DNA of 64,000 nucleotides, taken from positions 4,154,001 to 4,218,000 of the forward strand of contig OU015566.1 in the NCBI GenBank assembly GCA_907165135.1, read 5' to 3'. Each line of letters starts with the position of its first letter. Positions within the stretch are counted from its first letter, which is position 1. A program made the translations under genes and the position numbers. The notes beneath the pieces are model-generated. The model made no database searches. It saw only the letters and a list, made by a program, of their open reading frames with translations, and was not told the DNA's origin. This DNA is from Oikopleura dioica (Eukaryota > Animalia > Chordata). Shown piece by piece: positions 17,501-52,913 of the stretch.

Positions 17501-17843
17501 AGTAGTATAATGTCTGGCTAGGGCTTAGCTGCAGGCCGCCCTTTCGCCGCGCCGAGTCCAAAATGAAAAAAAGTGAAAAAAGGGTGGATTTTGCGCGCTC
17601 GACATATGGGGACCCCGGGGCAAATACTTGGAAAATATCCAGACTTTGACTAGGGTGGGCAGGCCGTACGGCAGGCCGTTTGGACTCGGTGCAGTTTTGG
17701 GCGATTTGCAGCCAGGCTCTAGCCAGACATTTTACTCAAGTGGTCGATCAAAATTAAGTGGTCAATAAAATAAAGTGGTCAATAAAAACGAGTGGTCAAT
17801 AAAAACGAGTGGTCAATAAAAGTGGCCGAAAGGCTCTAGAATC
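17501..17843 (+). repeat. Left terminal inverted repeat (~343 bp) with subterminal AGTGGTCAATAAAA repeats
   Basis: Reverse complement of 52575-52913; only a few substitutions or homopolymer differences in the outer ~235 bp. Confidence 0.95.
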
Positions 17844-17962
17844 GGGGGGATAAAAATTTTAGCGACGAATTGGAAGCTGCCACCGGAAGTGCTTGGAATT
17901 GCTGCCACTGGAAGTCGACGGAGAAGCTGTCATCGAAAGTGGAACCTACTCCGCTGCTGAAA

Positions 17963-18225
17963 CTACAAACGCCGCCCGTAAGCTGGAAAACTCTGCTCTA
18001 CTCGACGACCGTTGTTCTCTGCAAAAGGTAAAATGAACACAGTTTCAGAAATCAAGAACCTTTATTAGCACAATGGGAGCATGGATAGCGATTGGAGCAG
18101 AAATGAAGGCGAGCCGTTGATTGGAGGAGGTCTTGTTGGTCGCTCGCAAATTCACACGCTCGCTGTCGCCGGGTAAAAGTATTTTTCCACGTGACTGGCT
18201 TGATGGTACTCAGCTGCTGACCCAT
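17963..18225 (-). CDS. 73-aa viral orphan with N-myristoylation-type start (MGQQLS) and a Cys/His cluster; 2 exons
   Basis: Exons 18225-18060 and 18018-17963; 41-nt GT-AG intron keeps the frame. Confidence 0.5.
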
Positions 18226-18308
18226 TCTAAATGCTCTCATCTGATCACTGCACGCTAAAAGAATTTAATAAAGAATCAGTCGCAAATAAATGAAAATCAG
18301 GCTAACTT

Positions 18309-18786
18309 TTACTCGGACTCTTTGTCTTCCTTGTTGTCTTCGAGTTTCATTTCTTTGGCAAGTGCGTCGGCAGCAACTTTGCAAACTTCCTTGACGTCCT
18401 CATCGGTAAGGCTGGGCAGGCGAGGCTCATAATCATGCATAAAGTACTTCAAATCGTCGGGCATTATGCGAAAGTTGTTTTCGTACATGCAGATGTTGCT
18501 CTCGAGTTCTTGCAGGTACTCGCATTTCAGTTGACAAATTGGGTTGGTGCAAGCCGCCGCCAAAAGACACTGGTAAATGTCAAAGGAGAGCTGATCTTCA
18601 AAGACGTGGAATCGTGGAAAGGTGCCGTCCTTGACGAGCTTGGCGGCAATTTCCTTGAGTTTTGAAATGGTCCATTGGCGGTAAACGGTACCCTGGAAAT
18701 CTCTTAGCAACAAGTACCCTAGAAGAATTATTAAAAAAGATTTTACCTCTGGCATATTTGCAGCGTCTAATAGCTTTCATTGACAT
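18309..18786 (-). CDS. ~150-aa viral orphan; 2 exons with a 28-nt intron
   Basis: MSMKAIRRCKYAR joined through GTAAAA...TTCTAG (18746-18719) in frame to ORF 18309-18755. Confidence 0.6.
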
Positions 18787-19024
18787 GCTAATATAATCAT
18801 GGGGATTAATAATTCAGCCTTCCCACACGCCCAACAGTTGTTCTAGAACACCCAAATTGTTGTTGTGGATAATGGTTGGGGTGTTGATGAAATTCCGTAT
18901 TTTTGCGAAAAAGGGCTCACAATCTCTAGAATTGTTGTCAACCTGAGGCCGAAATTTCAAATTTCAATCAGTCGCCACTCGTTGCTCGACACAAAAGCTG
19001 CATTTTGCGCTTTCTACGTTTATC

Positions 19025-19183
19025 ATGAAAACTAGGTCCAAGACCGCTTCCGAACGCCTGCGTGCGAATTCTACCGTGGAAGAAGCAACTGCTGAAGGTA
19101 AGTGCGCTACTACTTTATTTGCAGGGAGAGGGGGGGAAATTTACAGGGCCAAAAAAATCTTCACTTCTTTCGCTTCTGACTGA
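19025..19183 (+). CDS. Possible ~43-aa peptide upstream of the motif array; 27-nt intron
   Basis: ATG at 19025, strong donor GAAG|GTAAGT at 19098, acceptor TTTGCAG at 19124. Confidence 0.35.
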   Translation: MKTRSKTASERLRANSTVEEATAEGKCATTLFAGRGGEIYRAKKIFTSFASD

Positions 19184-19327
19184 CTGACTTCAAATATCTT
19201 CTTGTCCTCTTGGTTCTTGAATTTGAATGGTTGGCAGGTCCGATTTTCATTGTCGATCTGAAAAGGGTTAGAGTTTAGAGAGAGTTTTCAAAGAAGTCTA
19301 TTCTTGTGACAGTTGCGAGATCGTTTA

Positions 19328-21230
19328 GATTCATTTCAAAAGTTTTCTTTGCAAAACTAAAACGTGTCAGGTTTTCATTTTAGAATGGGAGTCGCAAAGA
19401 CAGTATACATAGCGTTTCATTTTAATGTCGGTGCGCATGGAATGAACGAGGAGATTATAGTTTCATTTTAACATACGTTGCCATGTGAATGAGGAAAATG
19501 GTTGCGATTCATTTTATCACTAAACTTGGGCTAGAATCATTTACGCAACGGGCTCATTTTATTCAAATTCGCTCGGGAATATAGTTGCCAAAGCGGAAAT
19601 GGTTTCATTTTCTAATCATCTTGGTAACATTCGTGTTTATTGTTGGGATTCATTTCAAAACAAGTGCGGGAATATTGGCGGCCACGGTCTAGTTTCATTT
19701 TAAATTCGAAATGTGCATCAACACCAAAGAGAGTATAGTGTTTCATTTTAAGCGCAGGGGAGAAGCTTTGGTACTTTCTCAAAATTTTAAAGTTTCATTT
19801 TGTTACGACTCGGACACCACTAAGTTCTATAAGTCTTGATTCATTTCAGAGTTGACAAAAGAGTACCTTGACTATCTACAAGATTCATTTTGGAACCGCA
19901 GTTTAATTAAATGGTGAAAGAATACTTGAATCATTTTATATCGTCTACTAAAGGACTCATTTTGGGCGTATCACACGTGATATGTCCAGTTAGTAGGAAA
20001 TTATATGTTTTCAAATTTGCCATCATTTATTTTGTGGCGGTGGCGGCGGACTAAATATAAGCGTTGAAAATCTTGGAGCATTTTATAGTCGTTGTTGTCT
20101 TCAGGGCTCGATTCGCTTTTCAGAGAGCTTGACAAGATATCTCTCGATTCATTTTACAATACGATTTCGACTGCCTAAAATTAGAAAAAGTTAGAGTTAG
20201 AGCTAAAATAATTTTAATCAGTCATTTCGGTACAGTAGAGTATGTTTATACTGATTGCATTTTATAAAGGGAACATTGCAGGAAAATTTTTGCTAACATT
20301 TTATTATAGGTTATATTGGTCGCTTTGCGGAGGATTTTTTTGTCAGCATTTTATTGCCACGAGAAGTAGAGTAAAGATATTTGACACATTTAATGGATCG
20401 GGTTGAAAACGGATAGTACGTTCTTCAAAGGGTTTCATTTTAAACAAATGCCTATCGTAAGGATATCAAGACTCTGGGGTCATTTTATGTGTCTAATGCG
20501 TAGAGATTGTACCAAAATTGGCTTCATTTTAAGAGGGCGACTGGAAAAGAGCCTTATGAACAAAACGCTTCATTTTATGAAATGGGGGCTTCGAAGAGGC
20601 TTATTGAGGGAAGCGTTTCATTTTACGAATATGGGCGCGTGGAAAAGGCCTCATGAATAAAAAGCTTCATTTTAATATTAGAAAAATTTCCTTAAAAATG
20701 AACTTAACGCTGAACGAAACGTTTCATTTTATATTATGGGGCGTCGCGTTTATTTATCTTTTGTCTTTTATCAAGAATCATTTTATTCGTTGTCGGGGAT
20801 TTGCACTCAAGTTTCCTTGCGTTTCATTTTATAGTCTACAGAACTTAAAGTATACTGGTCTGTTAGATTTAGCTTCATTTTAAACCCTTTTTCTTTAATA
20901 AATGACATACTATTGGAATCATTTTAAATGCGCCAGTAGATTTCAGTGCAATAATTTTTGCAGGTTCATTTTAAAAACGTCGATTGAATCTCATTTTCGT
21001 GTAGAACATTTAGAATCATTTTAAAAACGGGCAGTATGGAACGATTAACAAACAATGTTTAGTATCATTTTACTGTTTTGATTTTTGATCAAATTAAAGT
21101 CCATTTTGAAACATTTTGACGCGTATTGTTGAGAATCATTTCAGTTCAACTAATGAAATTACTAAAAATTTGGAATCATTTAAGCAAAGTTGCAAAACCT
21201 AAGTCCCATAGCTGATACAGAATTTCATTT
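19328..21230 (+). repeat. Periodic array of a short (T/A)TCATTT(T) motif with mostly unique ~35-40 bp spacers
   Basis: About 45 CATTT on the + strand versus about 9 on the - strand; in-phase spacings mostly 42-52 bp; no long ORF. Confidence 0.85.
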
Positions 21231-21439
21231 TATAAACATAGATCTTTCACTCTTTCTCACTTTCTAAAATCTCTCGGCGTCTCTCTTTTTTGCAGATCTC
21301 TCATTCTAGTCTCTTTCTTTTGCTTTCGGATCTCTTTTCCTTCAAGTCATTTTGATGAAAAGTTGTCAAAGTGGCCCACATTTATGCTCCCCAATATTGC
21401 GCCCTCAGCGAAGAACCCTCCATTGATTTTTCTTTTTAG

Positions 21440-23963
21440 CCGTTGCCGACTCCCCACTACGACCAGCTGCTGGATCCGAGCAATCGCAAGGTAATCCCTA
21501 TTCATTGTCGATTTTCCGGAAACAAGTCTTTAGACCTTGAAATCGCGGCCCAGCATGTTGCTTCCGCGGCTGCCGATACAAGCGACGCGCTCTCATCGGT
21601 TATCGAGGCTGGGCAATCAATTCTGCTCGACGAATCGATGGACAGCTTCCACAATCCACCACCTCGACGAAGCTCCTCTCTTCGCGATCCTGCTCCCTTC
21701 AACGCCTCTTCTGGCAACACCACTGGACCCAACAGCTCGTCCTCCTCCGCCGAAAAGACCGTCACCCTCCCACATGTGCGAAACCAATGGGTTAACGAAG
21801 GCTCCACTCTCGTCGAAGAACCCGTTGCTCGCCCAAACGACAACACTACCAGCGCCGTCCCCACCAGCGACTGCTCCTGCGAAGAAAAGTCGCCCAAGCT
21901 TCCCCAGAAGCGCAACTGGGAAATGGATGGATCGACTGATCCTGAGAATCGCCCCCGAAAGCGATTCCAAGACGGCCGCGCTCCTCCCACCAGCTCCAGC
22001 GACGACAGTGTCAACGACACCGATTATCTGCTCGTAATGGGCGCTCCAGGTGCTGCTGAAAAAGCCCAAGAAAAGGCCAAGAGACGTGCTACTGCTGCTG
22101 CTCACGCTCGAGCTTTGGAGATTGTCGAATCTTCCTACCGAGCGTTGGCTCCTTCCGACGGCGACTCCTCTCAACCCGACAGCGACGATTTCGATGGCGT
22201 GCTCAACAAGAGCGAGCCCCGTCGAGTTGTTGTCAACACGAGCGAGGAGAACGACACACCCAACAACTCTCCTGACAGCGACGGCAGCGAGGAGCCCATG
22301 CGCACCACCAACTTTGACCCCTTTGCAAACAGGGGCGAAAGAGGGCTGGACTTGCGATGGCTCAACAAGCACGATCGCGTTGTCGTCCGCCAGCCTCACC
22401 GAAGACCTTCCGAAGACGCTTCCGGCTCGGACAACGTGTCAATGGAGGTCCACACGTCCGAGTGGAGCGACTCTTCTGCTGCTGGAGCCTTCCTTGGACA
22501 TCCCACCTCCTCCTCCTCCTCCTCCTCCTCGCCCCCGTCTGACAGCAACAGCACCCCCAACGCCAGCACCGTTGCCAACGTTGGCACCGTTCTCGCCGAT
22601 GTCATCGAGGAAATGGCCGAATCGATCATGGACATTTCGGATCTGTCAACCTTGACAGATCCCGAGACTCCCACCAACGCTCAGCCCCCACTCGGAAATG
22701 GGCTCTCACCCGCGATGATGGCTGGCGCTCTTACCGGCCTTTGCGACAACGGATTTATCCGTAATATGTCGCCAAAAAAATCGGCTCCGCTCGCTTCTCG
22801 ATCAAAGGGCCCGCTTAGCCCTGTTGAAGTGGTCTTGGTTCGCCAGATGGATTCCTCGTCGTCTGGCTACAGCTCTGGCTCAAAGAGCGGCGAAGAAGAG
22901 CGAGAGCTGATGGACGTGGACCCGATTCTCGCGATCAAGGAGCGAGCTCTTCTTGGCGGCGAAAGCTCAAGCTCCTCCGACGAGCCCACCACCAGCAGTT
23001 ACAACACCAGCTCCTCCTTCCCAACTGGCTCTTCTTTTGAGCCCAGCTCAATCAGCGGCAACTCCAACTGCAACTCTTCCTCCAACGGCAACTCCTCTTC
23101 TAGCGGCAACTCCTCCTCCAACGGCAACTCCTCCTCTTCCAACGGCAACACCTCCACCAGCGGCAACTCCTCCTCAAACGGCAACTCCTCCTCAAACGGC
23201 AACTACTCTCCCAACGGCACCGGCAACGCCTTCAAAGGTTCCATCGTCACCGTCTTTGACGAAGTCGATGTTGGCGCCGACCTTGGCGAAACAACCATCG
23301 TCGCGCCAGCCACGCCTGCTAACCGATCTGTCGTCACCGTACCTGGCGGCAGCGTCGCTGCTCCCGACGAGAGCGTTTTTGTTGGCGGCGCCGACGTAAG
23401 CGGCATTTCTGGCGTCGAGCCCCTCAACGCCACCGGCACCGGCCCTTCTCCCAACGCCACCGTCCTCAACGGCAGCGGCAACGGCGCCAACGGCAACTCC
23501 ACCAACGGCAACTCCACCAACGGCAACGGCACCTACACCGAGCTCCGATCCGGCGAGAACGGTCAGATTGGCGAGCAGGGCAACATTGTCCTTCGGGCGT
23601 ACCGACGGGATGGAACTTTGGGCCGGCCAACCGACTTCAACACCCCGCGAATCTTTCGCATTGAAAGCTTTGTCGAGCCGCCACACAAAGGTACTTTCCA
23701 TCAAGATAATTTAAATCAAGAACTTTTAATCAAATCATTTTAATCAAAACTTTCTTAATCAAAATTTAGCTCCGGCCGACGCGACCCCCTTCAAAAAGCA
23801 GCTGGTCTCCCTCAAGAACAACCTCGCCGAGATCTACCTCAACCACGACAACTTCCGCGAGGAATTGGCGAATGGAGAAGTTGGGGCGCTGATCCTCGTC
23901 AAAGACGAAAATGGGCGTGTGACCGCGTTCAAGAATAACATTGTCTTGCAGCGACGAAATTAA
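21440..23963 (+). CDS. Large Ser/Asn/Gly-rich disordered viral orphan (>750 aa) with a short globular last exon
   Basis: ORF 21443-23743 with C-ending codon bias and NGNSS repeats; donor at 23691, acceptor at 23769, last exon SGRRDPFKKQLVSLKNNLAEIYLN... The exact phase at this junction is unresolved. Confidence 0.7.
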
Positions 23964-24082
23964 CGGTTTAAACTCCACGGGAGTCTGTTTTCAAAAATAA
24001 ATTCAATTTATCTTTCATATAAAATGCAACTGATTCTTGATATTGATTGCATTTACGAGTGTCTGAGTCGAGCAGAGCAGGG

Positions 24083-24510
24083 CTAGAAAGCGGAGCGAAA
24101 AATTAGAGTAGAAATCGGAGCGAAAATTAAGAGTAGAAATCGGAGCGAAAATTAAGAGTAGAAATCGGAGCGAAAAATTAGAGTAGAAATCGGAGCGAAA
24201 ATTAAGAGTAGAAATCGGAGCAAAAATTAAGAGAAGAAAGCGGAGCGAAAAATAGAGCTAGAAAAGTAGAGCTTGAAAAATAGAGCTAGAAACTTGCGAG
24301 TAGAAAATGGAGCGAAACTTAGGAATTAAAAACTCACGAGTAGAAAATGGAGCGAAAAAAATTAGAGCCAGAAAAGCCGAGAGCCAATTTTAAAAAATCT
24401 CGAAATTCCAGAGAGCCGCCTCGAAATTCCATAGAGTCGCATCGAAAATCCAGAGAGCCGCCTCGGAAATCCAGAGAGCCGCCTCGAAATTCCATAGAGT
24501 CGCGTCGAAA
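24083..24510 (+). repeat. Intergenic tandem repeats: ~7 x 25 bp (GAGTAGAAATCGGAGCGAAAATTAA) then ~5 x 21 bp (CGAAATTCCAGAGAGCCGCCT)
   Basis: Directly visible units. Confidence 0.85.
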
Positions 24511-24867
24511 ATTCATATTTTTGGAAAAAGAGCCAGTTTCAAAAGTGCAAGCTTGCAAAAAGCACAATTCCAAGAGTCACCATGCATTTTTTGAAATTCA
24601 AATCTAGGTTGAGTTTTCCCTTTTCGCAAGATTTCGTCAGATTTGTACTTTCGAGAATTGCTCTGGGTTCGTTTCTTGATGGCGCCCGAATACAAAATTA
24701 CGAAAAAGGCCACATTCCGATGCTTATCAAAGTCCGGATGTTCCCAAGGTCAAATTCTGCTGAGAGAAAACTGCTGATCGAGAGAAAGACTGTGCCGACT
24801 GTTATCAATTTTGTGGCGCCTTTGACTCTTTGCCCCCTCTTTCTTTGATAATTGCCGCGTCACTAAC

Positions 24868-25937
24868 ATGTTCACTTTCAGCGTGAACATTTCGAATTTG
24901 GAAAATTGGTGGTTGCGGCTCCGTCGCAACATCAAGAGAGCCTTCGTCTACCCGTATCCGTCCATGTCACTTGGATCGTAAGTACCAGAAAATTTTGAGA
25001 CTAGAAATTGTGACTAGTAATTAGCAAAATTAAAATTAACTATTAACTAAATAAAACTAAAATTGCAAATTTAGCCACACATCCACTTCATCCCTGTCCA
25101 TGCCAGACGAAGAGCGCGACTTGGACATGTCGAATTCGTCGATGGCTAACCAGCTCGCGGATACGCTTCAGGCGAATGCGGAGCAATTCCAGCGACAGCT
25201 TCCTGCCCGACACCCTGACCCACGCCGACTCTTCATCTCCCTACTCGATCATCAAGAGATCACGGTCGAGAAGTTTATCATCGTGGCCCACCTCAGCGGA
25301 TTTCGAGTAAGTTTATTTTGAAACAAAAGAAAATTGGCATTTTATTTTAGCGAGTCAACAACCTCATGTTGTTTTCCTGGTTTTTCGTCGGCTGCATCTT
25401 CACGGTGGCGGTGATGATATTGGTTCTTATGCTGTTTCCGGCTCGACGCCGCTGCTTAAGCGGACGCTTCGCGCGCAGCTTGATTGGTTAGTTTATTTGG
25501 CGCAATTGCGCTTAAAAATCATTTAGCGCCACCCGCTGGCAACTTGTCAATTTCTGTCCCCCCGATGGATTTTGGCCTCGACGACTTTGGCTTTGTCAAC
25601 GACCTCGTCAACGGCCTCGTCAACGGCACCGCCACCAACCTCACCGCCATGAACCTCACCGCAAACTCCAGCGTCGCCAACTTTGCCACCTCCAACGACA
25701 CCCTTTTCATCTACGACGATGAAGATTTCGGCTCCGGCGACTTTGGCTCCGGCGACTTCGGCTCCGGAATGGACGTCGTCTTCGAGTCCTTTGGCTTCGA
25801 CGAATCCGACGGCGACTACAAGGGCGAGCTCTTTTTCGACATGGTTGTCGGTAAGTTTAAACTTGATTGAAACTAAAATTGAAACTAAAATTGAAATTTT
25901 AGGATCGCTCGAAGCCGCTTTTCGAGCCTTTTGGTAA
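24868..25937 (+). CDS. Viral type II membrane glycoprotein / proteoglycan-like protein; 5 exons
   Basis: Four in-frame GT-AG introns (24978-25074, 25307-25350, 25487-25526 and one from 25851); TM LMLFSWFFVGCIFTVAVMILVLMLFP; several N-x-S/T sequons; DEDFGSGDFGSGDFGSG. Confidence 0.7.
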
Positions 25938-26230
25938 AACGATCGCCTGAAACCCCTCCAAATTGTTCTTCCACGAATTGGCTTCTCCCTGTACATTGTC
26001 CCTGGTTAAAAACACCTCGTCTTCATCTATCATTCCATCACTCAAGCTTTTCCTGACCTCGACTTCTTGATCCCTTTCTTATCATTTAGCCTTTCTTCTC
26101 GTTTAGCTTTATCATCTTTAGCGTTTCTTCTCGTTTAGCTTTAGCCTGTATCATCATCTCTCTGTTTTAACCCTGTTCCAAATTTCTATCCCTTTAATTA
26201 GAACTCTTGTGAAAAATTAAAAATTTCAGG

Positions 26231-27434
26231 ATGTCGAAATCGGCCCAGAAAATGAATGCCAAGCCAGATCTCTCGACAGTGACCGAAGAGTCGACAATTG
26301 TCGGCTCTGATGATCCAGAGAAATTCTACGCCCGCATCGATCCGCCATCCAAGCCGCCACCGCCGCGCCCGCTCAAGACTCCAGCGGAATTCGCGCCGCC
26401 GCCGCCGCCGCCGCCGCCGTCGTTCAAGAAGCCTCCGCCACCGCTCCAAAAGCCGCCCGATGCGCAGAAAAAGCCCGACGCCGAGACACGAGAGCCCGTA
26501 CGGGAGCCCAAGCACAAAGTGTTCATTCGGGATCCTGTGCACATTTGTCGGAGCTCGGAATCTAAGCCTCTCATCGAAGCTCCGTCTCTGAGCGTCATCG
26601 GCCACTGCGGCGATCGACAGGTAGTGCCCCCTTTTAAGTGAGCAAAATCAAAGCTCAACTTCTAACGGAGCATTAAGGATCCGCGAGAGCTCAACGACTC
26701 TAGCGATGATGATGAGCAGCCAAATCGGTACCAGCATCAGTTCCGGAACTCGAGCCGCGCAAGACGACGAGGGCGATTTGGATCTTGCGGACGACCAGCT
26801 GCTGCTCTCAAACAGGTAAATTTTTTCAATTTTGCAAAAACTTTCTTTTGACAAGGACAACGACGACTTGGACGCCCTTGCCGACCAATTTGTTCGATTT
26901 GGCGTGGCACGATCATCTCCTAAACGTCCACAACCTCCACCTCGCCCGTCTGTTGACCGGCAACGACTGCTCGCCGAAAACGCCAAGGTTCTCACCGAAG
27001 CGGAAAGCGCTCGAGAAGCAATGGCGAGCGCTCAAATCAAACCTCCACCCCCGCCGCCGAGTGCCTACTTTGGCACCCCGGTAAGTTTAGACACGGGTGC
27101 TTTTGCTGACTTTTACTTTTAGGATGACGAGATCGATGCTTTCTTTGTCCGCGACAATCCCGAGCGCGCGTTTGTCAGCGGACTTGCCAAGACAAACCAT
27201 CACCGGCTCCTGAATTTCAAGCCGTCGCTGAAGATTGCATGCGCCGACGATCCCACCGCGATCAGCAAGAACAAGTTCCAACTCCAGGTGGTCACCACGC
27301 ATCGAATCAAGATCCTCGGAGGGCAAGGGCTGCTCGACATGACGCAGAAGTCGACAACAACTACGCCAATCAACTGGGACGGAAGTTTGCAGCACACCAG
27401 CAGCGTCCAGCGAATCAACAACTACTACAACTAG
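26231..27434 (+). CDS. Proline-rich viral orphan with a globular C-terminal exon; ~4 exons
   Basis: ORFs 26231-26641 and 26832-27122; last exon DDEIDAFFVRDNPERAFVSG...RINNYYN after GTAAGT...TTTTAG. Confidence 0.6.
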
Positions 27435-30300: not shown

Positions 30301-30607
30301 CAACCCGACGTACTAACATGCACCCATCACTCAAAACATTTTCCTGCCCGTTTTTCAATTGATACTTTTGTGCTTTTAAATTTTCGCTTTATTTGACTGT
30401 TTAAGATTTAGTTTCTGCTTCAAACTTTCCTTCAAATTTAGTTTTGCTTCGATTCCGTTTCCTTCAAATTTAGTTTTGCTCCTAGATTCCGCTTGTTTCA
30501 AATTCGTAAAACTAGCTTTAAATTGTTCAAACTTGTGCCACTCTTTCTCAAACACTCAATCTAGACCACTCAATTGTACTTGCGCTCTAATCAAAAATTT
30601 TAGAATT

Positions 30608-42476: not shown

Positions 42477-42543
42477 TTTTCAATAATTGAATAAAAAGAC
42501 TTTTTCAATAAAACAACATTTATTAGAATATACACATGCATAA

Positions 42544-44402
42544 TTAACCCCTTCGTCTTCGTTTTGGAGCAGCCTTGGGAGGCGGTGGGATAGTTTCGGC
42601 CCTTCGCTTTGTGCCCCTTGCAGTAGTTTTCATGACCCGAGTACCGCCCACCACAGATGCCTCTGAATAATAATAATAATTAGTGAGTTCCCAAGTGAGT
42701 AAATACCTCGAGCTTTGGCGTCCAAAAACAGCTCTCGCACTGGCAGCCTCATAATCATTGCATCCCATTGTTGCACAAGCGTATCGGCAAATTTGATTTT
42801 TGCAGTAACGAGCGCAGTTTGACCTTCACCATCATTGTCGAAAATGAGCGGCACCAACCAATTTTGCCCTTTAAAGACAAAATAGTCGAGTCCGCTAGCT
42901 GTAGCTGCATTCTCCCATCGTCCATTGTGTTTCATAAAGTTGATGTAGTGCTGAGTTGCAGTTGACCAAGGAGATCGATATGCAGGCTGACCATCAATGT
43001 AAATGGTAAATTCTTGAATTTTGAAAAATGGATGTTCCATTGTAGTCTTTGAGATGCACTTTTCAAATGTCATTTGACTAGCTTGTGAATAGGGCATTCC
43101 TGTGAAAATTATCATTTTGGGAACAGGTCCTGCGCTCAACTCAATGTCGTACTCGCTCATTCCAGTTCCAAGTGTCTTTCGGGTGAATTTCGGATAGTAA
43201 AATGGAATAACACATTCACCATCCCGTCCAGTTGAAATTGGTCTTTCGGCATCAGTTTTGGATCGCAAAAGACTGATTCCATCAAAAATTTCGAGGCTTG
43301 AGTCGCTCCTTTGGATCCAGCTTGTTTTCCCTGAAAAAGTAGATCATCTTTTCGTCTTCGGCAAAGTTTTCTTGTCCTTCAATTTCTTCTGTCTTGACCA
43401 TGTCTTCGATGATGTCGTGGGGGCGCCACCATTTTAGATCCGTTCCATTGGCAGCCGTGGTTTTGATGTCGGTTGCCTTGATGTTGACTTCGTCGTCGCT
43501 GTACGGGTCCAATTCAGAGTTGAACTTTTCAATTACCCGTTTAATTTTTTTAGCCTTTAATTTTTCAGCGCAATCGCATTGGCCCGCATTGTTGTGCTGC
43601 CCAATATTTTTCAAAAGTTTGAATTTCTTCGGGAAAGGGCATTCTGACTTGATCTAGCTGGGACATTTTGGCTCGGCACTTTTGAAAGTTGGAATGGCGC
43701 ATTAAAGCATAACACTGCTCATTCATTGTAAGTTCAATTTGTACTCGGGTGCCGGCTGGGAGCACTCGACCCTGTCTGCACAGGCCGTGCATAATGGGAG
43801 CCCGAACTTCGTACTCGTGAAAGAGTCTCTCATACGGGATCCAGATCTCGTATGCCGTCTTCTTTGACAAATTTTTGCTTTATCTCAGCCGGCTCCCATA
43901 GCTCGGTGGCAAACTGTTGCCGATTCTCGACCAAATTTAGCTTTTCCCCTCGAAATTAGTGTGATGCACTTTGAAGCGCTCAAGTTCGGGCCCTCTGCAT
44001 CAAAAGTGTCAAACCTTCCCTGGGAGAAAAGCTCGACTTCTTGAGCCACTGTTGATTTGTTGAGTTTGGCCTCACAGTGGCTATAGTGGCCATACTCGGC
44101 TGGGTCAAAAGACGAAAAGAGCCGAGTATCTGCAATGATAAAGTCCATTTTTTAATGCCCTTGGACAAAATATCATTATCGGGCACATAATTTGAGGGCA
44201 TTTTAAAATTGCAGCCAAACATGCACTGCGACAATTTAAGACTGTACTTGTCATCGGGCACTTCAAAACGGGTAATTTCCGGACAGTCATTTTTGCCGAG
44301 TCGCGGCACTACTTTGTAGCCCTTGTACGGATCCAGAGTTTCTTTGAGTTCGCGCTTTCTTCCGCGAAAGAACATGAGATTTCCATAATTTTCGTTTGCC
44401 AT
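42544..44402 (-). CDS. Major capsid protein (double jelly-roll, Polinton PY-like), ~544 aa if five candidate introns are spliced
   Basis: Segments PDNDILS, FSQGRFDT, APIMHGLCRQGRVLPAGTRVQIELT, YPKFTRK, GPVPKMIIF, IYIDGQP and KIKFADTL follow the Polinton MCP motif order; basic tail PKRRRR. Confidence 0.8.
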
Positions 44403-44430: not shown

Positions 44431-44532
44431 TTAGACAAGCTTTTTCAAATATTCCAATATACGAGCACAATCAATAAATCGGAAAACAACGAGGACAACA
44501 TAGGTGACGAGAATTGCCACGAGCATAATCAT
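44431..44532 (-). CDS. 33-aa hydrophobic single-TM peptide directly upstream of MCP
   Basis: MIMLVAILVTYVVLVVFRFIDCARILEYLKKLV; the frame is open upstream to a TTTTATTCAG acceptor at ~44703. Confidence 0.4.
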   Translation of the reverse strand: MIMLVAILVTYVVLVVFRFIDCARILEYLKKLV

Positions 44533-44793
44533 CTTCGTCTTCGTCGCTTGGCGCTGGCTCGTTTCTTGGGCCGAGACACTATTCCTCGTTTCGAGAGAGA
44601 CAGTACTTTGCCTCGGGTCGTCACAAGGAATGCAATCGGCGATTGCTTCTTCTTGCTCTTTCGTCGGCGCGCCATCGAGTGCGATTATTCCCCCAATCTT
44701 GACTGAATAAAATTTTAACCTTTACAAGTCACCAAGCGACCAAATTTACGACAGTTGTAACGACAGTTTTTACGACAATTGTAACGACAGTAA

Positions 44794-47038
44794 TTAAATT
44801 TCAGTCTTGTCTTTAACAAAATTAATTTCGGGTTCGTAGTAACGGCGATGCAAAGTTTGGCCCTGGGGACCTCGCAAAGAGTAAGTTGGTTCAAAAGTTC
44901 CAAAGTGAATATCAAAAATTTCGTACAATTCTTTGGTCCACTTTGCGCGCGCCCCTTTCCTAAAGCGGGATGATTTAGCTGCAGGTAAAGTGTCGAGAGG
45001 GATTCGAACAAGATCTCCAATAAAATATTTGGAACTTTTGCCAGTGCGTTCTTCGTACTTGCGCTTGAGTTCCAAATAATCAAAAAGCTCGCGCGCATTT
45101 GCACGATTAACGCTACTGGGAGCACGATTAATTGCGCTATGCACAGAATTATTGTAGGCAACATTGACATCTTGAAGAATGTGTATCCAGCGGCGAATTC
45201 CGTTGTGCGATGCGAAATAGAGCTCCAAACGATCTTCCAGCGTGCGACTTAAGTTATCCGTTTGAATTTAACAAATTAAAATTGCATGCAAAAGCTATCA
45301 ATTATTCAACGCACTTGAATCGCTCAGCAAGAGCAGCTTTTACGCCGGTTAGCTTTACGGGCGTCATGTTCCAGTCGTCGAGCAGAAGCGCAACTTCCCC
45401 CTTGAATTCGTTTCCTTGATCCGTCATAAACATGGTGTGCCCAGGCAAATCTAGCGTGGAAAATATGTCGCCCAAAAGCTGAGCGCATTCGGCAGATGAT
45501 TTGGTTTTCATGGGGCGCACAAAAGATTGCCGAGACAATCCGTCTACAACTACCAAAATGTATGGATAGCCAGAGTTGACGGTGGCATCGTTTTTGTACG
45601 CTTCGATTGTATCTGCATAAAGACACGTGTAGAGTCCAGTTGCAATGACGGGATTTCGCCTAAACTTTTTGACAAGCGGCTTGTGGCGAGAAAGCACTTC
45701 ATTGCGCCGCTTCATTTTTGCCACATCGAGCCGCGAATATGCAGTTGGCTCGTTGAAATTGTAGAATAAATGTTGACTGTTGTTGGGTTGTTGTTGTTGT
45801 TGTTGTTGTTCTTGTTGTTGATTTGGTTGTTGCTGGCGTTGTTCCCGCTGGCGTTGTTCCCGCTGCTGCTGCTCATTTCCAAAAATTGGAAAGGTCCTTG
45901 ATTGGGGCTCCTTCGGGCTCGGGGTCGCTTGATTCGCGCGATTCGACTGAGTCGGAGTCGACTTCTTCGTCGTCGTCGCCGATGGTGGCGGTGGTGTGAC
46001 CAGGTTCAACTTTGACTGCGGTGACCTTAGGTTGAGCATCTTTGCTATTCTTCTGGATCTCTCCAAATTGCTTTCGGAATTGGGCAGACCGCTTTGCAAA
46101 ACTGTCCTTGGCATCATGTCCGGCAAATCCAACGGGTTCCCGAATTGATCTACTGTCCGTTGGCTCGAGCTCGGGCTGCTGGTGGGGATTTCCATCGGCT
46201 CCGAAAAAGTAGTCTTTTGGGTACCACTGCTTGGTTGGAGCAAATCGAGGAAAGTCGTCTTGCCGCTCTTCTCGCCCCCCACGCATTGGGTCAAAAAAGA
46301 AAGGCCGCGGCTCTGGGTGAGCAAAGCCGGAGTAAGAATCGGTTTGACGACTGTAGGGCCAGTTGGATCTCCTAGCCCTGCTCTGTTGAGCTCCTCGGTC
46401 ATCGTATCTTGCCATTTTGCCGCCGCCTGGACTGGGTTCAAATCGGACCCGCTTGGATCTGGGTTCAAATTTTTGTTCAAATTTTTGATCAAATTTTTGT
46501 TCGAATCTGGGGTCAAATCTGGGGTCAAATCTGGGGTCAAATCTTGGGTCGAATCGGGGGTCAAATCGGGGGTCGAATCTTGGGTCAAATAGGGGTTCAT
46601 AATAGTCGGGTTCGTAATGGCGAGGTTCGTATTCGCGAGGCTCGTATCTTGGCTCGTATCTGGAATCGTGCCTTGGCTCGGGATGGGAACCATGCTTTGG
46701 TACATGCCGTGGCTCGTGCCTTGGTTCATGCCTTGGCTCGTGCCTTGGCTCATGCCTTGGCTCATGCCTTGGCTCATGCCTTGGCTCATATTCGCCTCTG
46801 GGCGGTCCAGCGGAAGTGGAGTTTTCCGCGGCCGGCCTCGGGGCCTCTTCGTTGTCTGCAAATCTTTTTGGTGAGTCTTCTGATTCGACTTCGTATTCTT
46901 GTTGCGTCGGCTCGATGTCAATGTTTCTAGGCCTGTAGGAGTACGATTTTCCCATTGGAATGGCTCGGTTTGAAAATCTTGCAACCATTTGGGCGGTTCG
47001 CGTCTCCTCTTCGGTGTAGTCCGGGTAGGGTTCGCCAT
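44794..47038 (-). CDS. Retroviral-type DDE integrase (~725 aa) with a long disordered N-terminal extension; 2 exons
   Basis: YADT, YILVVVDGLSR, TDQGNEF; the 67-nt intron 45314-45248 restores AERFNRTL; C-terminal YFIGDLVRI...KGARAKWTKELY...YYEPEI. Confidence 0.95.
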
Positions 47039-47153
47039 TTGCGCGAGGGCCGCGGGCCCTTACCCTACCTGTGTCGGGATTGTACTCGATGTCGTCAAAC
47101 AGATGTCCAAATTCAGTTGGAGTCAGACTAAAGTATACACTCGCTGTTTTCAT
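45873..47153 (-). CDS. 426-aa ORF overlapping the integrase N-terminus in another frame (possible overprinted gene)
   Basis: ATG-initiated; open through both repetitive and non-repetitive sequence. Confidence 0.35.
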   Translation of the reverse strand: MKTASVYFSLTPTEFGHLFDDIEYNPDTGRVRARGPRANGEPYPDYTEEETRTAQMVARFSNRAIPMGKSYSYRPRNIDIEPTQQEYEVESEDSPKRFADNEEAPRPAAENSTSAGPPRGEYEPRHEPRHEPRHEPRHEPRHEPRHEPRHVPKHGSHPEPRHDSRYEPRYEPREYEPRHYEPDYYEPLFDPRFDPRFDPRFDPRFDPRFDPRFDPRFEQKFDQKFEQKFEPRSKRVRFEPSPGGGKMARYDDRGAQQSRARRSNWPYSRQTDSYSGFAHPEPRPFFFDPMRGGREERQDDFPRFAPTKQWYPKDYFFGADGNPHQQPELEPTDSRSIREPVGFAGHDAKDSFAKRSAQFRKQFGEIQKNSKDAQPKVTAVKVEPGHTTATIGDDDEEVDSDSVESRESSDPEPEGAPIKDLSNFWK

Positions 47154-47311: not shown

Positions 47312-48085
47312 ATGTCTTCAATCATGGAACAACTCCGCCGGGAGCAAGAGTCTCCCGAAAAAGAGAATTCACTTCCATCGCCCTCTGATAATCGGCCTGA
47401 GCCGTCAGATTTTCGCGTACCTGAGCCGCCTCAGAGAAAACGAAAAAGGAGCAGCTCCCCATCCCCAACTCGAATCAGCAAAAAGGCCCTCTTGGACTTT
47501 TTATTCGGCGCCGAAGATCAACCCTCAACTTCGAGAGCAATCGAGACCACTCCTGAAGACAACAACGACAAATCTCAACCCAAGTCGCCAAAGAAGCGCA
47601 AGCACATTCCTCCACGACCAGCATCTAGCTCCGACGACGAAGACGACGGTGACGACGAAGACGACTGCACCCCCGAGCCTTCCGTCAAGAAAGCCAAAGC
47701 CGCCCCCTACACGCCGACCTTTATAAAGATCCAAACCGCGTTTCCAATCTTGGAGAAGGAGGAGGAATCTCTCTCGGCGCCATTTTTGGCGCTCATCGAC
47801 GGACACAAGCTCTCCAATCCTCCCAAGGGCACCTACTGGATCAACTTGCTCATTGAGCGAAGCGTTCGCAAAGACACGAGCCCCCGATTTGATTTTGAAA
47901 AGCTGTTGAAGCGAGGATCGCGCATTCAGTGCGTTATTAATCTCCACAGTTTTAATCCCAAGAAGCGAGACGACGTCGAGTTCAAAAAGTACTTGCCCAC
48001 AGTTTTGGATCAAGGAGGAAAAGTCGTCGTCTTTCTGCGAGCACGAGTCGAGCCCAAAAAAGCCCGAATATCAACGGGCCTTTGA
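47312..48085 (+). CDS. Viral orphan (~257 aa): NLS-like and acidic disordered N-terminus, small C-terminal domain
   Basis: AAAATG start context; QRKRKRS, PKKRK, DDEDD; divergent from the integrase. Confidence 0.65.
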   Translation: MSSIMEQLRREQESPEKENSLPSPSDNRPEPSDFRVPEPPQRKRKRSSSPSPTRISKKALLDFLFGAEDQPSTSRAIETTPEDNNDKSQPKSPKKRKHIPPRPASSSDDEDDGDDEDDCTPEPSVKKAKAAPYTPTFIKIQTAFPILEKEEESLSAPFLALIDGHKLSNPPKGTYWINLLIERSVRKDTSPRFDFEKLLKRGSRIQCVINLHSFNPKKRDDVEFKKYLPTVLDQGGKVVVFLRARVEPKKARISTGL

Positions 48086-48136: not shown

Positions 48137-48872
48137 ATGATCGGCTCAAGTTTTCTTGGTAAGTACTTTGGGGACACGCGGCTCAAACATCCATTTGCGG
48201 CGATTATTAGCGGAAGTACGGGCACAGGCAAGACCCACGTAGCTAAACAGCTCATTGAAAAAGAGGGCATAAGGGGAAGAATTTCGACCATTTATTACTT
48301 TATGCCCCGCCTGGAGCCTTTGAACATTAAACCCCCAGCCCATCAGCGATTATTTTTGATGGAAGGTCTCCCCACTAGAAAATGGGTTGATGACACGTTT
48401 AAAGAGACCCAGCGCGACACTCTGATTATTTTCGACGATCAGTGGGCAGAGTGCGTTGAAAACCGGGCAATCGAATATCTCTTTGTTTATGGGAGACGCC
48501 ATCTGGGGATTAGTTTAATTGGCATCACCCAAAATTTTTATCAAAAGTCGAAAAGCTCCACCCTCTATCGGTTTGAATTTTCTAGAATTGCCTCAACTAA
48601 TTGTTTATTTTAGCAATTGCATGACATGCTTTGTCTTGCTGCCGAATCATGTAGACTCGTCAATCAACGCCACCATCGCCACCAAGCTCGGCTACAGCGC
48701 CTGCTACAAAGCCGCCCGAAAGCTCTTCAAAGAACGTCGATGCCGGTACCAGTACGTTATAATTAGAAAAGACGTAGAAGATCCGACGACGCCGACCTTT
48801 TATACAAACGCCTTTTCTGACATTCCCGAGTTGGGGCCAAACCCCGTCTTCTTTGAAGAAAACGACGAGTAA
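48137..48872 (+). CDS. A32/FtsK-HerA-like packaging ATPase (230 aa); 2 exons
   Basis: Walker A GSTGTGKT, Walker B LIIFDD, GRRHLGISLIGITQ; the 43-nt intron 48571-48613 restores LYRNC. Confidence 0.93.
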
Positions 48873-49116: not shown

Positions 49117-49829
49117 CTAAAAATTGCGACCGCAAATATCAAGGACGCGGCCATTGGCCGATCGGATCAAAATTTTGACCCGCTCCGCGCGCAGATCGTT
49201 GACAAGGCGATGCTCTTGGGTCTCTTCGGCGTCGAGGATGTCGCACATTTCCTTGGCGAAGGCGGCGCGCTCGAGGACGGTGTTGGCCTGGGTGAGGCGG
49301 AGGAATCGAAGGTTGTCTAAATAAAAGTTAGTTGAGCATTTTTTCGAGCTACTCTTACCTTCGAAAATAGAAGCGCCGTCGATGCAGTAGCTCAGCTGGT
49401 CAGCGTCCACGTCGACAAAGTTGACGCCATTTGGCGCGCGAGTGGGATACTTGGGCGCGGGAGGAGCCAACGGAACTCGCTGAGGCTGGGCCTCTTGGTA
49501 GGTGCGCTGGTTTTCCTGCTGTCGCTGCTGCTGTCGCTGTGGCTGGGGCTGCTGCTCGCCCTTTTTCTTGCCGCCAAAGAAGGACATCTTTCCTCGGCCA
49601 ACTTCGGGAGCTTCAGCGGGCTGGGAGAGCATTCTCGAGGCAGCTGCCAACTTGGCGCTTGCTCGTGCCAAAGATTTGGCGAGGTTGGTTCGCTTGGCCG
49701 CCGTTGTCTAAACAAATTTGTTCTAGAATTGTTTTTTCAACACTGCAGCAAGCTACAGTCGAAGCAAGCTACTAGCCACAGTCGCAGCAAGCTTCACTTG
49801 CGAAAATTTCGACTCACCTGCTTGGTCAT
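49117..49829 (-). CDS. Viral orphan (~190 aa), basic/Gln-rich N-terminus; 3 exons
   Basis: MTKQ|GTGAGT...TTTAG joins ORF 49117-49671, which contains a further in-frame 42-nt GTAAGA-TTTAG intron. Confidence 0.6.
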
Positions 49830-49983
49830 TTCAAAAAAGTAAAAATTGATCCTTGCTGTAGGGTTGCAAAAACCAAACTGAGCATTTTTTTGCATTTTTC
49901 ACACTCGCCAGGGGCAGTTCTAGAGAAATTTATTCAATTTTTTTATTGAAAACAACAATAACAAACAGGGTGCAGAGTGGGTT

Positions 49984-51345
49984 CTAGAGATTTTTAATTT
50001 TCTTCTTGGACGACGACGGGGCGCAGAGTTTCTTCGACTTGGCGACCGTTGAGCAGTGGATCGGCGGCTTGTCCTTGCGGCGGCAAAATTGGAACTGGCA
50101 TTCTATTTGCGCCAAGAATGAATCTCGGTCGTCCAAAAGATTGGACCTGAAAATTTTCAAAGGGCACATCGTTTGTGCGCGTACGAACCCGGTCAATAAA
50201 GATTCGATGGGGATTAATGTCGGCGCGGATGATTCGAGGAAAGACGGGATTGTAGAAGCTGTTGCGAAAATCTTGGACGAGCGAGGCGTTTCCATTGTTG
50301 CCAGTGACAAAGAGCACACCGTTCCAGGGAATTTTTTCGCGGCAACATTTGACGCGAAAAGGTGAAACCGCGTAGTCGAATTCAACATCTCCACCGCCAC
50401 CAGTAGTTGCAACATAGAGCTCACGTCTGCGCCGGCGCTCGGCATCGAGGCGACCAATGTAATCCTCGAGGCGATCTGCGGTGAAAGCACAACAGCCGAT
50501 TTTTTGCTGGCGAAGTTTCACTGTTTTTACGCTTTCGGTGAACCTTCGCAAATCGTAATCGGTCATTTTTTCTAGCTCGTACTGCTCAATCGGAAGAAAT
50601 TGGCCAAGGATGCGGCGGACTTGATCGTTGGCGGTCTCTTGGTCAAAAGTTTTGTCCTTGTAAAAGCGGTCACGCAGCGTAGTTTCAGCAAACAACACCA
50701 GAGTCGAGTTGAAAAGCTTGTTCGAATAGCCGCTGAATCGCTTTCGCATGTCGTGAAAATAGGTTTCGTAGCGCGGGTACTGAACGCGATTGTAGGGCAT
50801 TGAAAATTTTTGATTTTTCAGCGAGTCGGCGTCGCGAGAGTATTCAATTTCGTAGGAGCGGCAAGTGTACTCGTTGTTGCTATCAGTCGTGTGCATCATT
50901 GTGGGGCGATTCGAGTTGAGCAGCGGGCCACTTTTTCGAAGTCCTCCTTGAGCAATGTCGACAACGGGAATCAGACATCTTTGGCCCTTGGTCGAGTAGG
51001 TTTCCGGATCAACTAGAATTTATTAGAAGGTGAGAGAACATTTCAACATACCGGTGACACGATGAACTACAATTTTGAGCCCAATTTTTTCGACGCCATT
51101 TTCCCTGTATCTCTGAGGAATAAATTCAAAACTTTCGTCGCTGGGAACTCCGCAAACTCGAGTCGGGCGAACTTCGATTGATCGGAATTCGTCTTCATAG
51201 TTGACGCCGATCAACGGTACTTGGTTCAGGCTAATCTTTGAGGCAATTTCCACCTTTTTCATGGGCATTTTTAAATGTGACAATTGAGTCCAAAATTCCA
51301 CCCAGTCCAGCTCCACCAGTGCTCCTCCACTCGATATCCATATGC
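49984..51345 (-). CDS. Candidate minor capsid protein (penton), more than 420 aa, at least 3 exons; 5' end unresolved
   Basis: Introns 51051-51013 and 50543-50507 join three ORFs in frame; beta-rich ends (VELDWVEF; FHLFASNV...IECQFQFCRRK) resemble Polinton pentons. Confidence 0.6.
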
Positions 51346-51478
51346 CGAGATCAATTATTCAGTCCAACGGTATTCCGCTCAATCGAAATCTACTGATAAA
51401 CGGTTCAAAGGATACAGCACGTCAGAGAGAGATCATTCATCGGCAAGAGAAGACATCATTCATCAGCCAGAGAACAAA

Positions 51479-51631
51479 ATGCCAAAACGAAACTTTAAAA
51501 AGTCTTTTCTTGGAGTCGACGGCAGCGTCTACTGCTACGAGTGCTACTTGGAAAATCGACCTCACGCTCACCTCATGTTCAAGCCCTACATCTTTTGCTC
51601 CATTTGCAAAGCCGAGTTGACTTGGAGTTAA
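51479..51631 (+). CDS. 50-aa C4 zinc-ribbon-like peptide
   Basis: AAAATG start; CYEC-x17-CSIC. Confidence 0.5.
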   Translation: MPKRNFKKSFLGVDGSVYCYECYLENRPHAHLMFKPYIFCSICKAELTWS

Positions 51632-51900
51632 AGTCTCGCAGCCAGCGTGCCAGTTTGGCGCAGGTAGGAAAACCTAAATCAAGGTCTTAGTGGTCCCTCG
51701 AGTTCGATTCTCGCCAGTGACCAAGCTCTTTCGGGGGCGAAACGAGAATCAAAGCTTATTCCGGCGGCTATTACGGCGGCCGTACAGAGCACCAGGAAAT
51801 AGCTGACACCTCAGCTCAAGCTACCCGCAAGGAGGAGGAGGAAACCGGAGTTGGAGGCGCGGTAGACAATCAAAAACCACCAAACTTTTTTTCATTTTTT

Positions 51901-52050
51901 ATTGCACTAGAATAACAATTGCACTTGAATAAGAATTGCACTAGAATAAGAATTGCACATGAATTTAGAATTGCACTAGAATGGCACGTGGGAAATTGCA
52001 CTATAGGACACGTGGGAAAAGAGTAGGCGGGAAATTAGTAGGCGGGGATT
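51901..52050 (+). repeat. ~6 x 17-bp AATTGCACTAGAATAAG-type repeats plus CACGTGGGAAA and TAGGCGGGA repeats
   Basis: Directly visible near the right TIR. Confidence 0.7.
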
Positions 52051-52074
52051 AGTCAGCAAGCACGTGGACGACAA

Positions 52075-52287
52075 TCAAAAGAGAACAGAGATGGTGCTGC
52101 CAAAGGCGTTATTGATGGCAGCTTTGCTTCCGTAGCTGACCGTGTAGTCGACGATATTTTTTTCTTGCTGCTTGCAGATGATCTTGAGCTTCCTGCGCAG
52201 TCGCTGGCTCTTGGTTCGCAAAAACGGCACATTTTTCTTTTGGAGGGTTTTTCCAATCTTTTTCGTAAAGCCCTTGAGAGAAAACAT
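52075..52287 (-). CDS. 70-aa basic viral peptide
   Basis: ATG-initiated, Lys/Arg-rich ORF just inside the right TIR. Confidence 0.45.
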   Translation of the reverse strand: MFSLKGFTKKIGKTLQKKNVPFLRTKSQRLRRKLKIICKQQEKNIVDYTVSYGSKAAINNAFGSTISVLF

Positions 52288-52574
52288 TATTCAGTTGCTG
52301 TAGATATTGATTTTAAATGACAACTAGAAAATTGGAGCGCATTTATACCTACCTCGGTTTCTAGCGCCAATTTTTCACGCCTTGTGTTATTGGAATTTGA
52401 TTTAATCAATTTAGATTGGACCGCAATCGAAGCATCATCTACATCCAGCATCTACATCTTCCGCCAGCTGTGCCACCATCGTCCTGCAATAAAGCCTTCT
52501 TCCGCGAAAATGGGTGCAACTTGTCGTTATTTATGCAGATAAGATCTTTTGAAATTTAAAATTTCACGCCCCAG

Positions 52575-52913
52575 GATTCTAGAGCCTAGCGGCCACTTTT
52601 ATTGACCACTCGTTTTTATTGACCACTTTATTTTTTATCGAACGATTTATTTTATTGACCACTTAATTGACCACTCGAGTAAAATGTCTGGCTAGAGCCT
52701 GGCTGCAAATCGCCCAAAACTGCACCGAGTCCAAACGGCCTGCCGTACGGCCTGCCCACCCTAGTCAAAGTCTGAATATTTTCCAAGTATTTGCCCCGGG
52801 GTCCCCATATGTCGAGCGCGCAAAATCCACCCTTTTTTTCACTTTTTTCATTTTGGACTCGGCGCGGCGAAAGGGCGGCCTGCAGCTAAGCCCTAGCCAG
52901 ACATTATACTACT
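52575..52913 (-). repeat. Right terminal inverted repeat (~339 bp)
   Basis: Ends in ...CATTATACTACT; reverse complement of 17501-17843. Confidence 0.95.

Follow-up and report, generated by a model that had tools for sequence, protein, structure and literature searches.

A 35.4-kb Polinton with a probable accessory arm in the genome of the larvacean Oikopleura dioica

The element and its insertion site

The window analyzed here is a stretch of 64,000 nucleotides from Oikopleura dioica (assembly GCA_907165135.1, contig OU015566.1, positions 4,154,001 to 4,218,000 of the forward strand). It contains a Polinton (Maverick) of 35,413 bp at 17501-52913, numbered from the first nucleotide of the window, in which a core with the hallmark genes of the family lies to the right of an 18-kb left arm of unfamiliar genes. 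The element is bounded by terminal inverted repeats (TIRs) and a target site duplication (TSD). The left TIR (17501-17861, plus strand) begins with AGTAGT and holds a 38-nt inverted pair and a 17-nt tandem repeat, and the right TIR (52557-52913, minus strand) finishes with ACTACT. Their outermost 251 nt are 97% complementary, and at full length they agree at 92.9% over 364 columns. The sequence CCGGCC adjoins the element on both sides (17495-17500 and 52914-52919, plus strand), the left copy lying within a palindromic host repeat. The perfect TSD and near-identical TIRs reported in a preliminary description of this locus are therefore confirmed.

When the flanks are joined with a single CCGGCC, they differ from an empty copy of the host repeat at 14749-14902 at 10 of 155 columns. 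Because the joined flanks match this uninterrupted paralog, 17501-52913 is an insertion. The target is a short palindromic repeat resembling a miniature inverted-repeat transposable element (17415-17500, 52914-52990, and 14749-14902), and the element sits at its internal CCGGCC. Contig depth over this host repeat is very high, about 10,000-19,000 in the bin. The G+C content is 49.5% in the arm, 46.6% in the core, and 39-41% in the flanks. A TIR end is fused to a different flank in three of the four short-read runs listed (X1, X2, and X4), which marks a second insertion site. This junction and the existence of near-identical copies fit recent movement, and the insertion in the window is itself likely to be recent.

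Core genes and their relatives

The Polinton hallmarks present are a protein-primed type B DNA polymerase (pPolB), an rve integrase, an A32/FtsK-like ATPase, TIRs with a short repeated end motif, and a 6-bp TSD. The polymerase, the integrase, the ATPase, and the ends identify the element as a Polinton; its capsid module is unconfirmed. About 23 genes were read from the open reading frames (ORFs), about ten in the arm and thirteen in the core and right end, which agrees with the earlier count of about 22 genes in two blocks.

The pPolB gene (37329-42476, minus strand) has two predicted exons, and its polymerase motifs were located. Its main ORF (37578-42479, minus strand) runs for 1633 codons without a stop and matches Pfam family PF03175 (DNA_pol_B_2) with an E value of 5.5e-17 and 62 bits, against a cut-off of 25.8. 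The unbroken 4.9-kb frame described earlier thus stands, but it is likely not the whole gene, as a short second exon at about 37332-37541 probably encodes a conserved C-terminal tail. The last conserved motif block is found behind a stretch of about 40 nt with GT-AG ends. The metagenomic relatives L002 and L003 share this interruption and a third relative, L001, reads through the site, so by comparison the stretch is an intron. Terminal-protein and vOTU domains are placed at the N-terminus of Polinton pPolBs in the available text of a recent study (bioRxiv 2024.03.18.585575). Shallow profile comparisons with regions of P0006 scored inside the range of shuffled sequences.

A search with pPolB drew six matches from 3,494 candidates. 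One, at 97% identity, is encoded on the O. dioica Y scaffold; four are 38-39% identical, of which three come from O. dioica and one is metagenomic, and the sixth is 22% identical. Overall, the window pPolB shares 97-99% identity with proteins already annotated in O. dioica. A protein annotated on chromosome 1 in the first pPolB cluster is identical where truly aligned and may be the window locus itself; this copy (P0007, P0038) was not counted as independent. An exact-sequence look-up of ten window ORFs found one. Scanning metagenomes with pPolB gave eight loci, among which L001, L002, and L003 are relatives at 37-41%, and a scan of IMG/VR gave only three distant loci. L001 to L003 come from marine metagenomes and keep the core gene order of the window at roughly 40% identity. 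In L002 the order of ATPase, repeat-rich ORF, integrase, capsid candidate, pPolB, and the gene at 36.3 kb is that of the window, with 31-59% identity per exon. In the pPolB tree, which has 13 rows, three of them under half filled, and no labelled references, the window sequence, three O. dioica pPolBs, and four marine-metagenome pPolBs form one clade with support values of 96/98. Identity to these relatives in the core is 36-39%, and a long branch separates this clade of eight from the other five rows (22-29% identity). The polymerase phylogeny called for in the preliminary description therefore places the element in a separate clade. Together with independent contigs that link the arm and with syntenic relatives, it supports the proposal that this is a separate Polinton lineage, rich in genes and integrated recently. 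A 558-bp contig of run X2 carries a patch of 22 pPolB differences at 40224-40419. Since 19 of the 22 fall at third codon positions, a diverged sibling evolving under purifying selection has likely recombined here.

The integrase (44794-45800, minus strand, one predicted intron) was recognized by Pfam and by similarity to L002. Its first exon matches PF00665 with an E value of 3.3e-6 (27.7 bits, cut-off 32.6). The integrase is 42-52% identical to that of L002, and D-D-E-like residues can be read in it. The A32/IVa2-like packaging ATPase (48137-48872, plus strand, two exons, 230 aa) has Pox_A32 (E 2.1e-4) and Adeno_IVa2 (E 1.2e-3) as the top Pfam families of its first exon, both slightly below cut-off. 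It is 48-55% identical to its L002 counterpart and 31-32% identical to ATPase ORFs adjoining pPolB in two further loci, L004 and L005. Downstream of pPolB lies another conserved core gene (36268-36789, minus strand), 39-50% identical to its relatives. The idea that this gene encodes a stand-alone terminal protein was unsupported, with a score of 14.95 against shuffled sequences reaching 15.54.

The candidate for the major capsid protein (42544-44402, minus strand) lies between the integrase and pPolB and has a predicted last exon with a basic tail. In the window it is spread over several frames, with the breaks at 43.2-44.2 kb; the L002 counterpart, 30-41% identical, is a single ORF of 590 aa. 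Contigs of X1, X2, and X3 all carry small indels relative to the window at six places within 43.2-44.2 kb. The frame is probably broken through an error of assembly, with a true mutation of this copy as the less likely alternative. Non-canonical introns were ruled out as the cause, because L002 is continuous there and the short-read contigs show indels. At 43940-44166, 225 bp of the gene are missing from contigs of X1 and X2, so that some copies have an internal deletion. Taken literally, the earlier statement that the Polinton is intact does not hold for the window, given the capsid candidate as it reads there. We infer that this gene of about 600 aa encodes a capsid protein from its position, its conservation, and a motif pattern which we take to resemble that of Polinton capsids; neither profile nor fold has confirmed this. 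A two-exon gene of 411 aa (49994-51268, minus strand) is a candidate for the minor capsid protein by elimination only and had no PDB match. No protease family, the Ulp1/adenain-like type included, was detected in the 55 ORFs scanned, about 35 of which lie in the element, and short exons could hide one.

Four core genes, those for pPolB, the integrase, the ATPase, and the capsid candidate, have intron-like interruptions at positions common to relatives only about 40% identical. The positions in the integrase and ATPase are common to the window and L002, and those in the capsid candidate to the window, L001, and L002. All introns reported here are predicted from the sequence, and the exon chains of arm genes B to I were read by eye. 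O. dioica introns have a modal length of 47 bp, and 2.4% exceed 1 kb (PMC5240408).

The left arm

Assembled short reads support the arm as part of the element. Arm sequence occurs in five of the 24 runs listed, three of them with at least 90% of the arm's sequence words, and the runs come from two studies. Contigs of X2 and those of X3 each cover all 30 bins of 16.9-36.8 kb. One X2 contig (17792-19824) leads from within the TIR into the arm, and one X3 contig (35989-36370) bridges arm and core. In long contigs of these two runs, depth is about 70-91 over the arm and about 67-88 over the core, a weak indication, as contig depth does not equal copy number. Diverged siblings, at about 85-90%, also cover pieces of the arm. 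No internal pair of TIRs or long terminal repeats was found in it. The circumstance that would have overturned the preliminary description, an arm made of host DNA or of a nested element, was not encountered; contigs tie the arm to both TIR and core, and the arm has syntenic relatives.

The arm genes are mostly co-oriented. Gene A (18052-18755), a predicted spliced gene for a small globular orphan of no known family, is the sole minus-strand member. Gene B (19025-23963, plus strand, as are all that follow) is predicted to consist of a short first exon, an intron of about 2.3 kb, and a long low-complexity exon rich in Ser, Asn, and Gly, with an ORF of 767 codons at 21440-23743. Tandem repeats of 25 and 21 nt fill 24059-24510 between B and C, where a diverged sibling has other sequence. 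Gene C (24679-25483) is predicted to be spliced and, by eye, has a membrane-like hydrophobic stretch near its end. Gene D (25565-25940) encodes a short acidic protein with N-x-S/T and FGSGD repeats, probably like a glycoprotein or proteoglycan. A poly-proline protein with three predicted introns is the product of gene E (26231-27434). Gene F (27587-28379) has a basic N-terminus followed by sequence rich in Pro, Tyr, and Ser with PPxY-type motifs, and partially matches P0022. Gene G (28423-30380) combines Arg/Gln repeats with a globular part of about 270 aa. Gene H (30608-31860) is predicted by eye to encode a type I membrane glycoprotein with a signal, a mucin-like Pro/Thr/Ser stalk, a hydrophobic helix, and a tail; a GC-rich hairpin with 46-bp arms occupies 31125-31254 in its predicted intron. 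Gene I (31841-32653) contains (P/T)K(T/L)EP repeats. Gene J (32802-35700), with at least five exons, joins a low-complexity N-terminus to a conserved helical domain. None of the arm ORFs scanned reached a Pfam cut-off or a PHROG E value below 0.05, in agreement with the earlier description of about ten mostly co-oriented genes lacking a recognized family.

Two arm genes have informative relatives. The sole match of gene G, one of 204 candidates in a set of longer proteins only, is YSR.g17143 at 88% identity, and the best match of gene J is YSR.g17141, also at 88%. These two relatives, 85-88% identical overall, lie two gene numbers apart on the Y scaffold. They are 23-25 gene numbers from a near-identical Y-scaffold core (g17166, g17170) and in reversed order, so they probably come from a different, diverged copy.

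A search with J among 1.84 billion representatives gave eight matches, seven of them unnamed proteins at 29-40% identity, and extension added three more. Of the 11 metagenomic rows in the alignment, eight end exactly where the window has an intron and three read through it, so this intron is likely old. Intron-less relatives of J (P0029, P0035, and P0036; 419-519 aa) occur on metagenomic contigs of up to 17 kb, which may stem from free viruses or from a different host; no relative of J was found in the viral contigs searched. A model of P0029 (pLDDT 65) is mostly helical and had no Foldseek match. Compared by VIA, 14 of its 50 rows were Bcl-2-family structures (Z 6.2-7.9, root-mean-square deviation 3.4-4.7, 124-151 aligned residues), with the matches spread over 300 residues and Z below the level trusted for helical proteins. 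The modeled likeness to the Bcl-2 fold is a lead only, and J is best described, as far as the model goes, as a conserved helical family that matches no fold in the searches run.

An array of short motifs

The predicted intron of gene B contains an array of about 40 motifs of the form nG(W)TTCATTTTA at 19331-21353 on the plus strand. Between the ORFs at 19025 and 21440, TCATTT occurs 38 times on the plus strand and twice on the minus strand (200 shuffles: mean 3.9, maximum 9). A profile scored 39 units with the consensus nG(W)TTCATTTTA, or 15 per kb, against 0.07-0.6 elsewhere. Units are mostly 40-57 nt apart, leaving spacers of mostly 29-44 nt (about 33). The array, on which the preliminary description is silent, is nearly unchanged in contigs of X2 and X3, apart from a 34-bp deletion in X2. 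Only three units are followed by AG, so the motifs are not plain splice acceptors. Most likely, the motifs are lined-up binding sites that a single putative protein would recognize, either in DNA or in the RNA of the intron. The array may have grown through local duplication, with selection keeping only the motif and the spacing.

Two other explanations were rejected: a chain of minus-strand micro-ORFs, as the peptides are 2-44 aa long with inconsistent frame, and a series of RNA hairpins, on the basis of structure scores. Counterparts were sought in IMG/VR, where 44 loci have a triple motif. Nearly all are AT-rich and none has a G-2 signature at a like level; within ~3 kb, a single strand of these loci carries no more than 15 copies of TCATTTT, compared with 30 in 2.3 kb here.

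Interpretation

The observations are best explained by a single 35.4-kb Polinton that likely integrated itself recently into a host repeat of O. dioica and whose 18-kb left arm is integral and likely accessory. We assign this reading a probability of roughly 0.75. From what is known of the family, the element would be excised or copied, pPolB would replicate it by protein priming from the AGTAGT ends, the rve integrase would re-integrate it and make the 6-bp duplication, and the ATPase would package its DNA into a capsid built from the ~600-aa gene. Core and arm genes would be transcribed in the host nucleus and their introns spliced by the host. The membrane, mucin-like, proline-rich, PPxY, and basic-repeat proteins of the arm may act on the host cell, for which the accessory regions of adenoviruses provide an analogy.

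Several results weigh against this reading. The Pfam scores of the integrase and ATPase are below the curated cut-offs. The capsid candidate has a broken frame in the window and no match in Pfam, PHROG, or PDB, and a single-sequence model of it reached a pLDDT of only 31.5, a failed fold. Neither a minor capsid protein nor a protease was identified by Pfam among the window ORFs scanned. Functions of the arm proteins were read only from their composition. The listed contigs each cover just a part of the element, and the 4-mer profile of the arm fails to separate it from the host (r 0.85 to the left flank, 0.86 to the core). In run X1, which may not be independent of the window locus, arm contigs have a depth of 46-61, compared with 99 for the right core and 146 for the right end. 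Arm depth there is about half that of the right core and a third of that of the right end, which suggests that there are also shorter, armless derivatives. The near-identical core on the Y scaffold has no near-identical G annotated beside it, and with the X1 depths this indicates that some copies may lack the arm.

One alternative is that the element moves only as a self-synthesizing transposon or is a defective copy, in which the ~600-aa gene makes no working capsid or is truly broken here, and no particles form. The broken capsid frame, the lack of any capsid, penton, or protease match, and the numerous introns and low-complexity genes, which fit a long residence in the genome, all point this way. 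Yet at the capsid breaks the three deep short-read sets agree with one another against the window, the L002 relative keeps one uninterrupted ORF, and the ATPase is intact and conserved in L002. We regard this alternative as unlikely, while giving it appreciable weight.

The array may similarly be only a neutral, decayed tandem repeat, an explanation we likewise think unlikely. It has in its favor one local 49-bp tandem at 69% identity and the deletion in one individual. Against it, the spacers are as unlike each other as shuffled sequences (0.28 vs 0.27), one related triplet excepted, while CATTT is kept in all 39 scored units, in part through the selection of hits, at a spacing of 40-57 nt. 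An intron of 2.3 kb is moreover rare in this host (PMC5240408).

A third alternative, in which an ordinary Polinton of about 17 kb took up the arm either as host DNA or as a second, nested element, is improbable. The arm has introns of host size, its close-set, co-oriented genes resemble O. dioica operons (PMC5240408), its depth in X1 is under that of the core, and the 4-mer profile is undecided. Against this, the arm has no internal terminal repeats, directly adjoins the TIR, and is element-like in G+C content. In the searches, G and J had no host paralog and no relative in another animal, only the 88% Y-scaffold copy and unnamed metagenomic proteins.

It is quite improbable that the array stores acquired spacers as a memory or serves as a small-RNA cassette in which each ~46-nt unit yields one guide RNA. 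A fixed short motif, unique spacers of 29-44 nt, and a strict strand bias would suit such a cassette, and the spacers are close to animal piRNAs in length. However, the related triplet consists of three adjacent units 45-68% alike, which indicates growth by local duplication. The array has no RNA structure (z 0.78 and 0.44) and no Rfam match, its spacers gave one chance hit among 50,697 phage records, and no acquisition, processing, or nuclease gene for a CRISPR-like memory was recognized in the Pfam scan of window ORFs. An assembly chimera of two partial elements, although compatible with the indel differences between the window and all short-read sets and with the lack of a spanning contig, is very improbable, because the TSD matches on both sides, an empty paralog exists, and contigs of two studies bridge both the TIR-arm and the arm-core junctions.

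Comparison with described elements and viruses

Intact vertebrate Mavericks measure 12,723-24,620 bp and have eight intronless ORFs, AGT-AGT ends, a 6-bp TSD, and accessory regions (PMC8097293). The O. dioica element resembles them in its pPolB, rve integrase, ATPase, TIRs, 6-bp TSD, AGTAGT ends, and accessory regions beside the core. It differs in its length of 35,413 bp, its ~23 genes, the predicted introns in core and arm, and a pPolB of at least 1,632 aa, and a protease and minor capsid protein were not detected. It thus falls outside the vertebrate type as defined by a length of 13-25 kb and an intronless core.

Endogenous polinton-like viruses (PLVs) and polintoviruses of protists measure about 14-40 kb (PMC10120064), coral elements average 23.6 kb within a cut-off of 10-50 kb (PMC11131425), and dinoflagellate elements have introner-derived introns (PMC11957031), according to the available text of these sources. 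At 35 kb the present element is large for an animal Polinton, yet inside the protist and coral range. Like the protist and coral elements, it is integrated, TIR-flanked, and gene-rich; unlike them, it has a chordate host and belongs to a pPolB clade distant from the other rows tested (22-29%). Introners are recent insertions, whereas the intron positions here are common to relatives of 40% identity.

Mavericks ("MAV") are a listed class of transposable elements in O. dioica (PMC5240408). Other O. dioica Polintons (PAR.g12375, chr1.g1460, and chr1.g1345) belong to the same pPolB clade at 38-39% identity. Adintoviruses (PMC8502044) are likewise animal-associated linear double-stranded DNA elements with accessory genes, but adenain, PLA2X, gasdermin, and other adintovirus accessory genes were not detected here. 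The arm genes have no sequence similarity to adenovirus proteins, and the element, in contrast to adenoviruses, has an integrase. Adenoviruses do share a similar genome size, spliced transcripts, and accessory regions with membrane glycoproteins.

Arrays of protein-binding sites known from DNA viruses include the baculovirus homologous regions (hr), the adenovirus packaging repeats, and the family of repeats of Epstein-Barr virus. The array described here is like them in having directional short motifs in non-coding DNA near one genome end, and unlike them in its non-palindromic motif, unrelated spacers, ~40 copies, and location in a predicted intron. A literature search, which did not cover supplements and most subscription journals, found no description of such an architecture. 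What is new is the size, twice that of typical animal Polintons, the conserved core introns, the integral accessory arm, the protein family J, and the motif array; J and the array are concrete unexplained features of the element.

Animal Polintons have been described as size-constrained (~17 kb) and intronless, and this has served as an argument for packaging in capsids. A family of twice that size with deeply conserved introns tests the limits to growth and the scaling of genome to capsid size, and bears on the origin of accessory regions and splicing in adenovirus-like genomes. We also consider a bolder reading, possible though in our judgment doubtful, in which a lineage of DNA viruses peculiar to larvaceans, of adenovirus size (35 kb), integrates, is spliced, and still moves, with a conserved arm that encodes the new family J and surface glycoproteins and a functional 40-unit array that is a new cis-element or small-RNA cassette. 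Such a lineage would be a chordate case midway between Polintons and adenoviruses in genome organization. O. dioica, a chordate kept in the laboratory, has a very small genome and completes its life cycle in six days. The available text of PMC8097293 states that no Polinton particles have been observed in animals, and with a recently mobile family in a host that can be cultured, the question of such particles becomes accessible to observation.

Other genes and features

Several further genes lie in the core and right end. A 138-aa ORF (36820-37236, minus strand) adjoins the conserved gene downstream of pPolB, and a small ORF with a hydrophobic stretch at its end lies at 44431-44721 (minus strand). 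The 426-aa repeat-rich ORF at 45873-47153 (minus strand) contains EPRH and DPRF repeats and has an N-terminus common to L002. It is followed by a 257-aa ORF (47312-48085, plus strand) whose mate in a 90% cluster is YSR.g17170 of the Y scaffold. Near the end of this ORF, at 48056, all three deep runs have a small indel relative to the window, and the Y-scaffold relative is 275 aa long. A Gln/Pro-rich ORF (49117-49632, minus strand) and a 50-aa ORF with two CxxC pairs (51479-51631, plus strand) complete the set.

TCTAGA is a core promoter motif of the male germline in O. dioica (PMC6389100). It occurs at 17835, 18842, 18925, 28414, 30560, 32686, 49722, and 52578, and thus also at the inner end of both TIRs. 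The motif is not enriched in the element (0.40 vs 0.35 per kb). It lies 43-111 nt upstream of six of 22 predicted starts and 4 nt upstream of a seventh, figures that carry no control for position.

About 1 kb to the right of the element, 53895-54040 contains 22 telomere-type hexamers (CTAACC), and this run is followed by a hairpin with 71-bp arms at 54527-54698. To the left, a tandem duplication at 14072-16747, with blocks 74-84% identical, includes a sulfotransferase exon. The remaining flank genes encode a phosphate transporter, an astacin, and an arginase.

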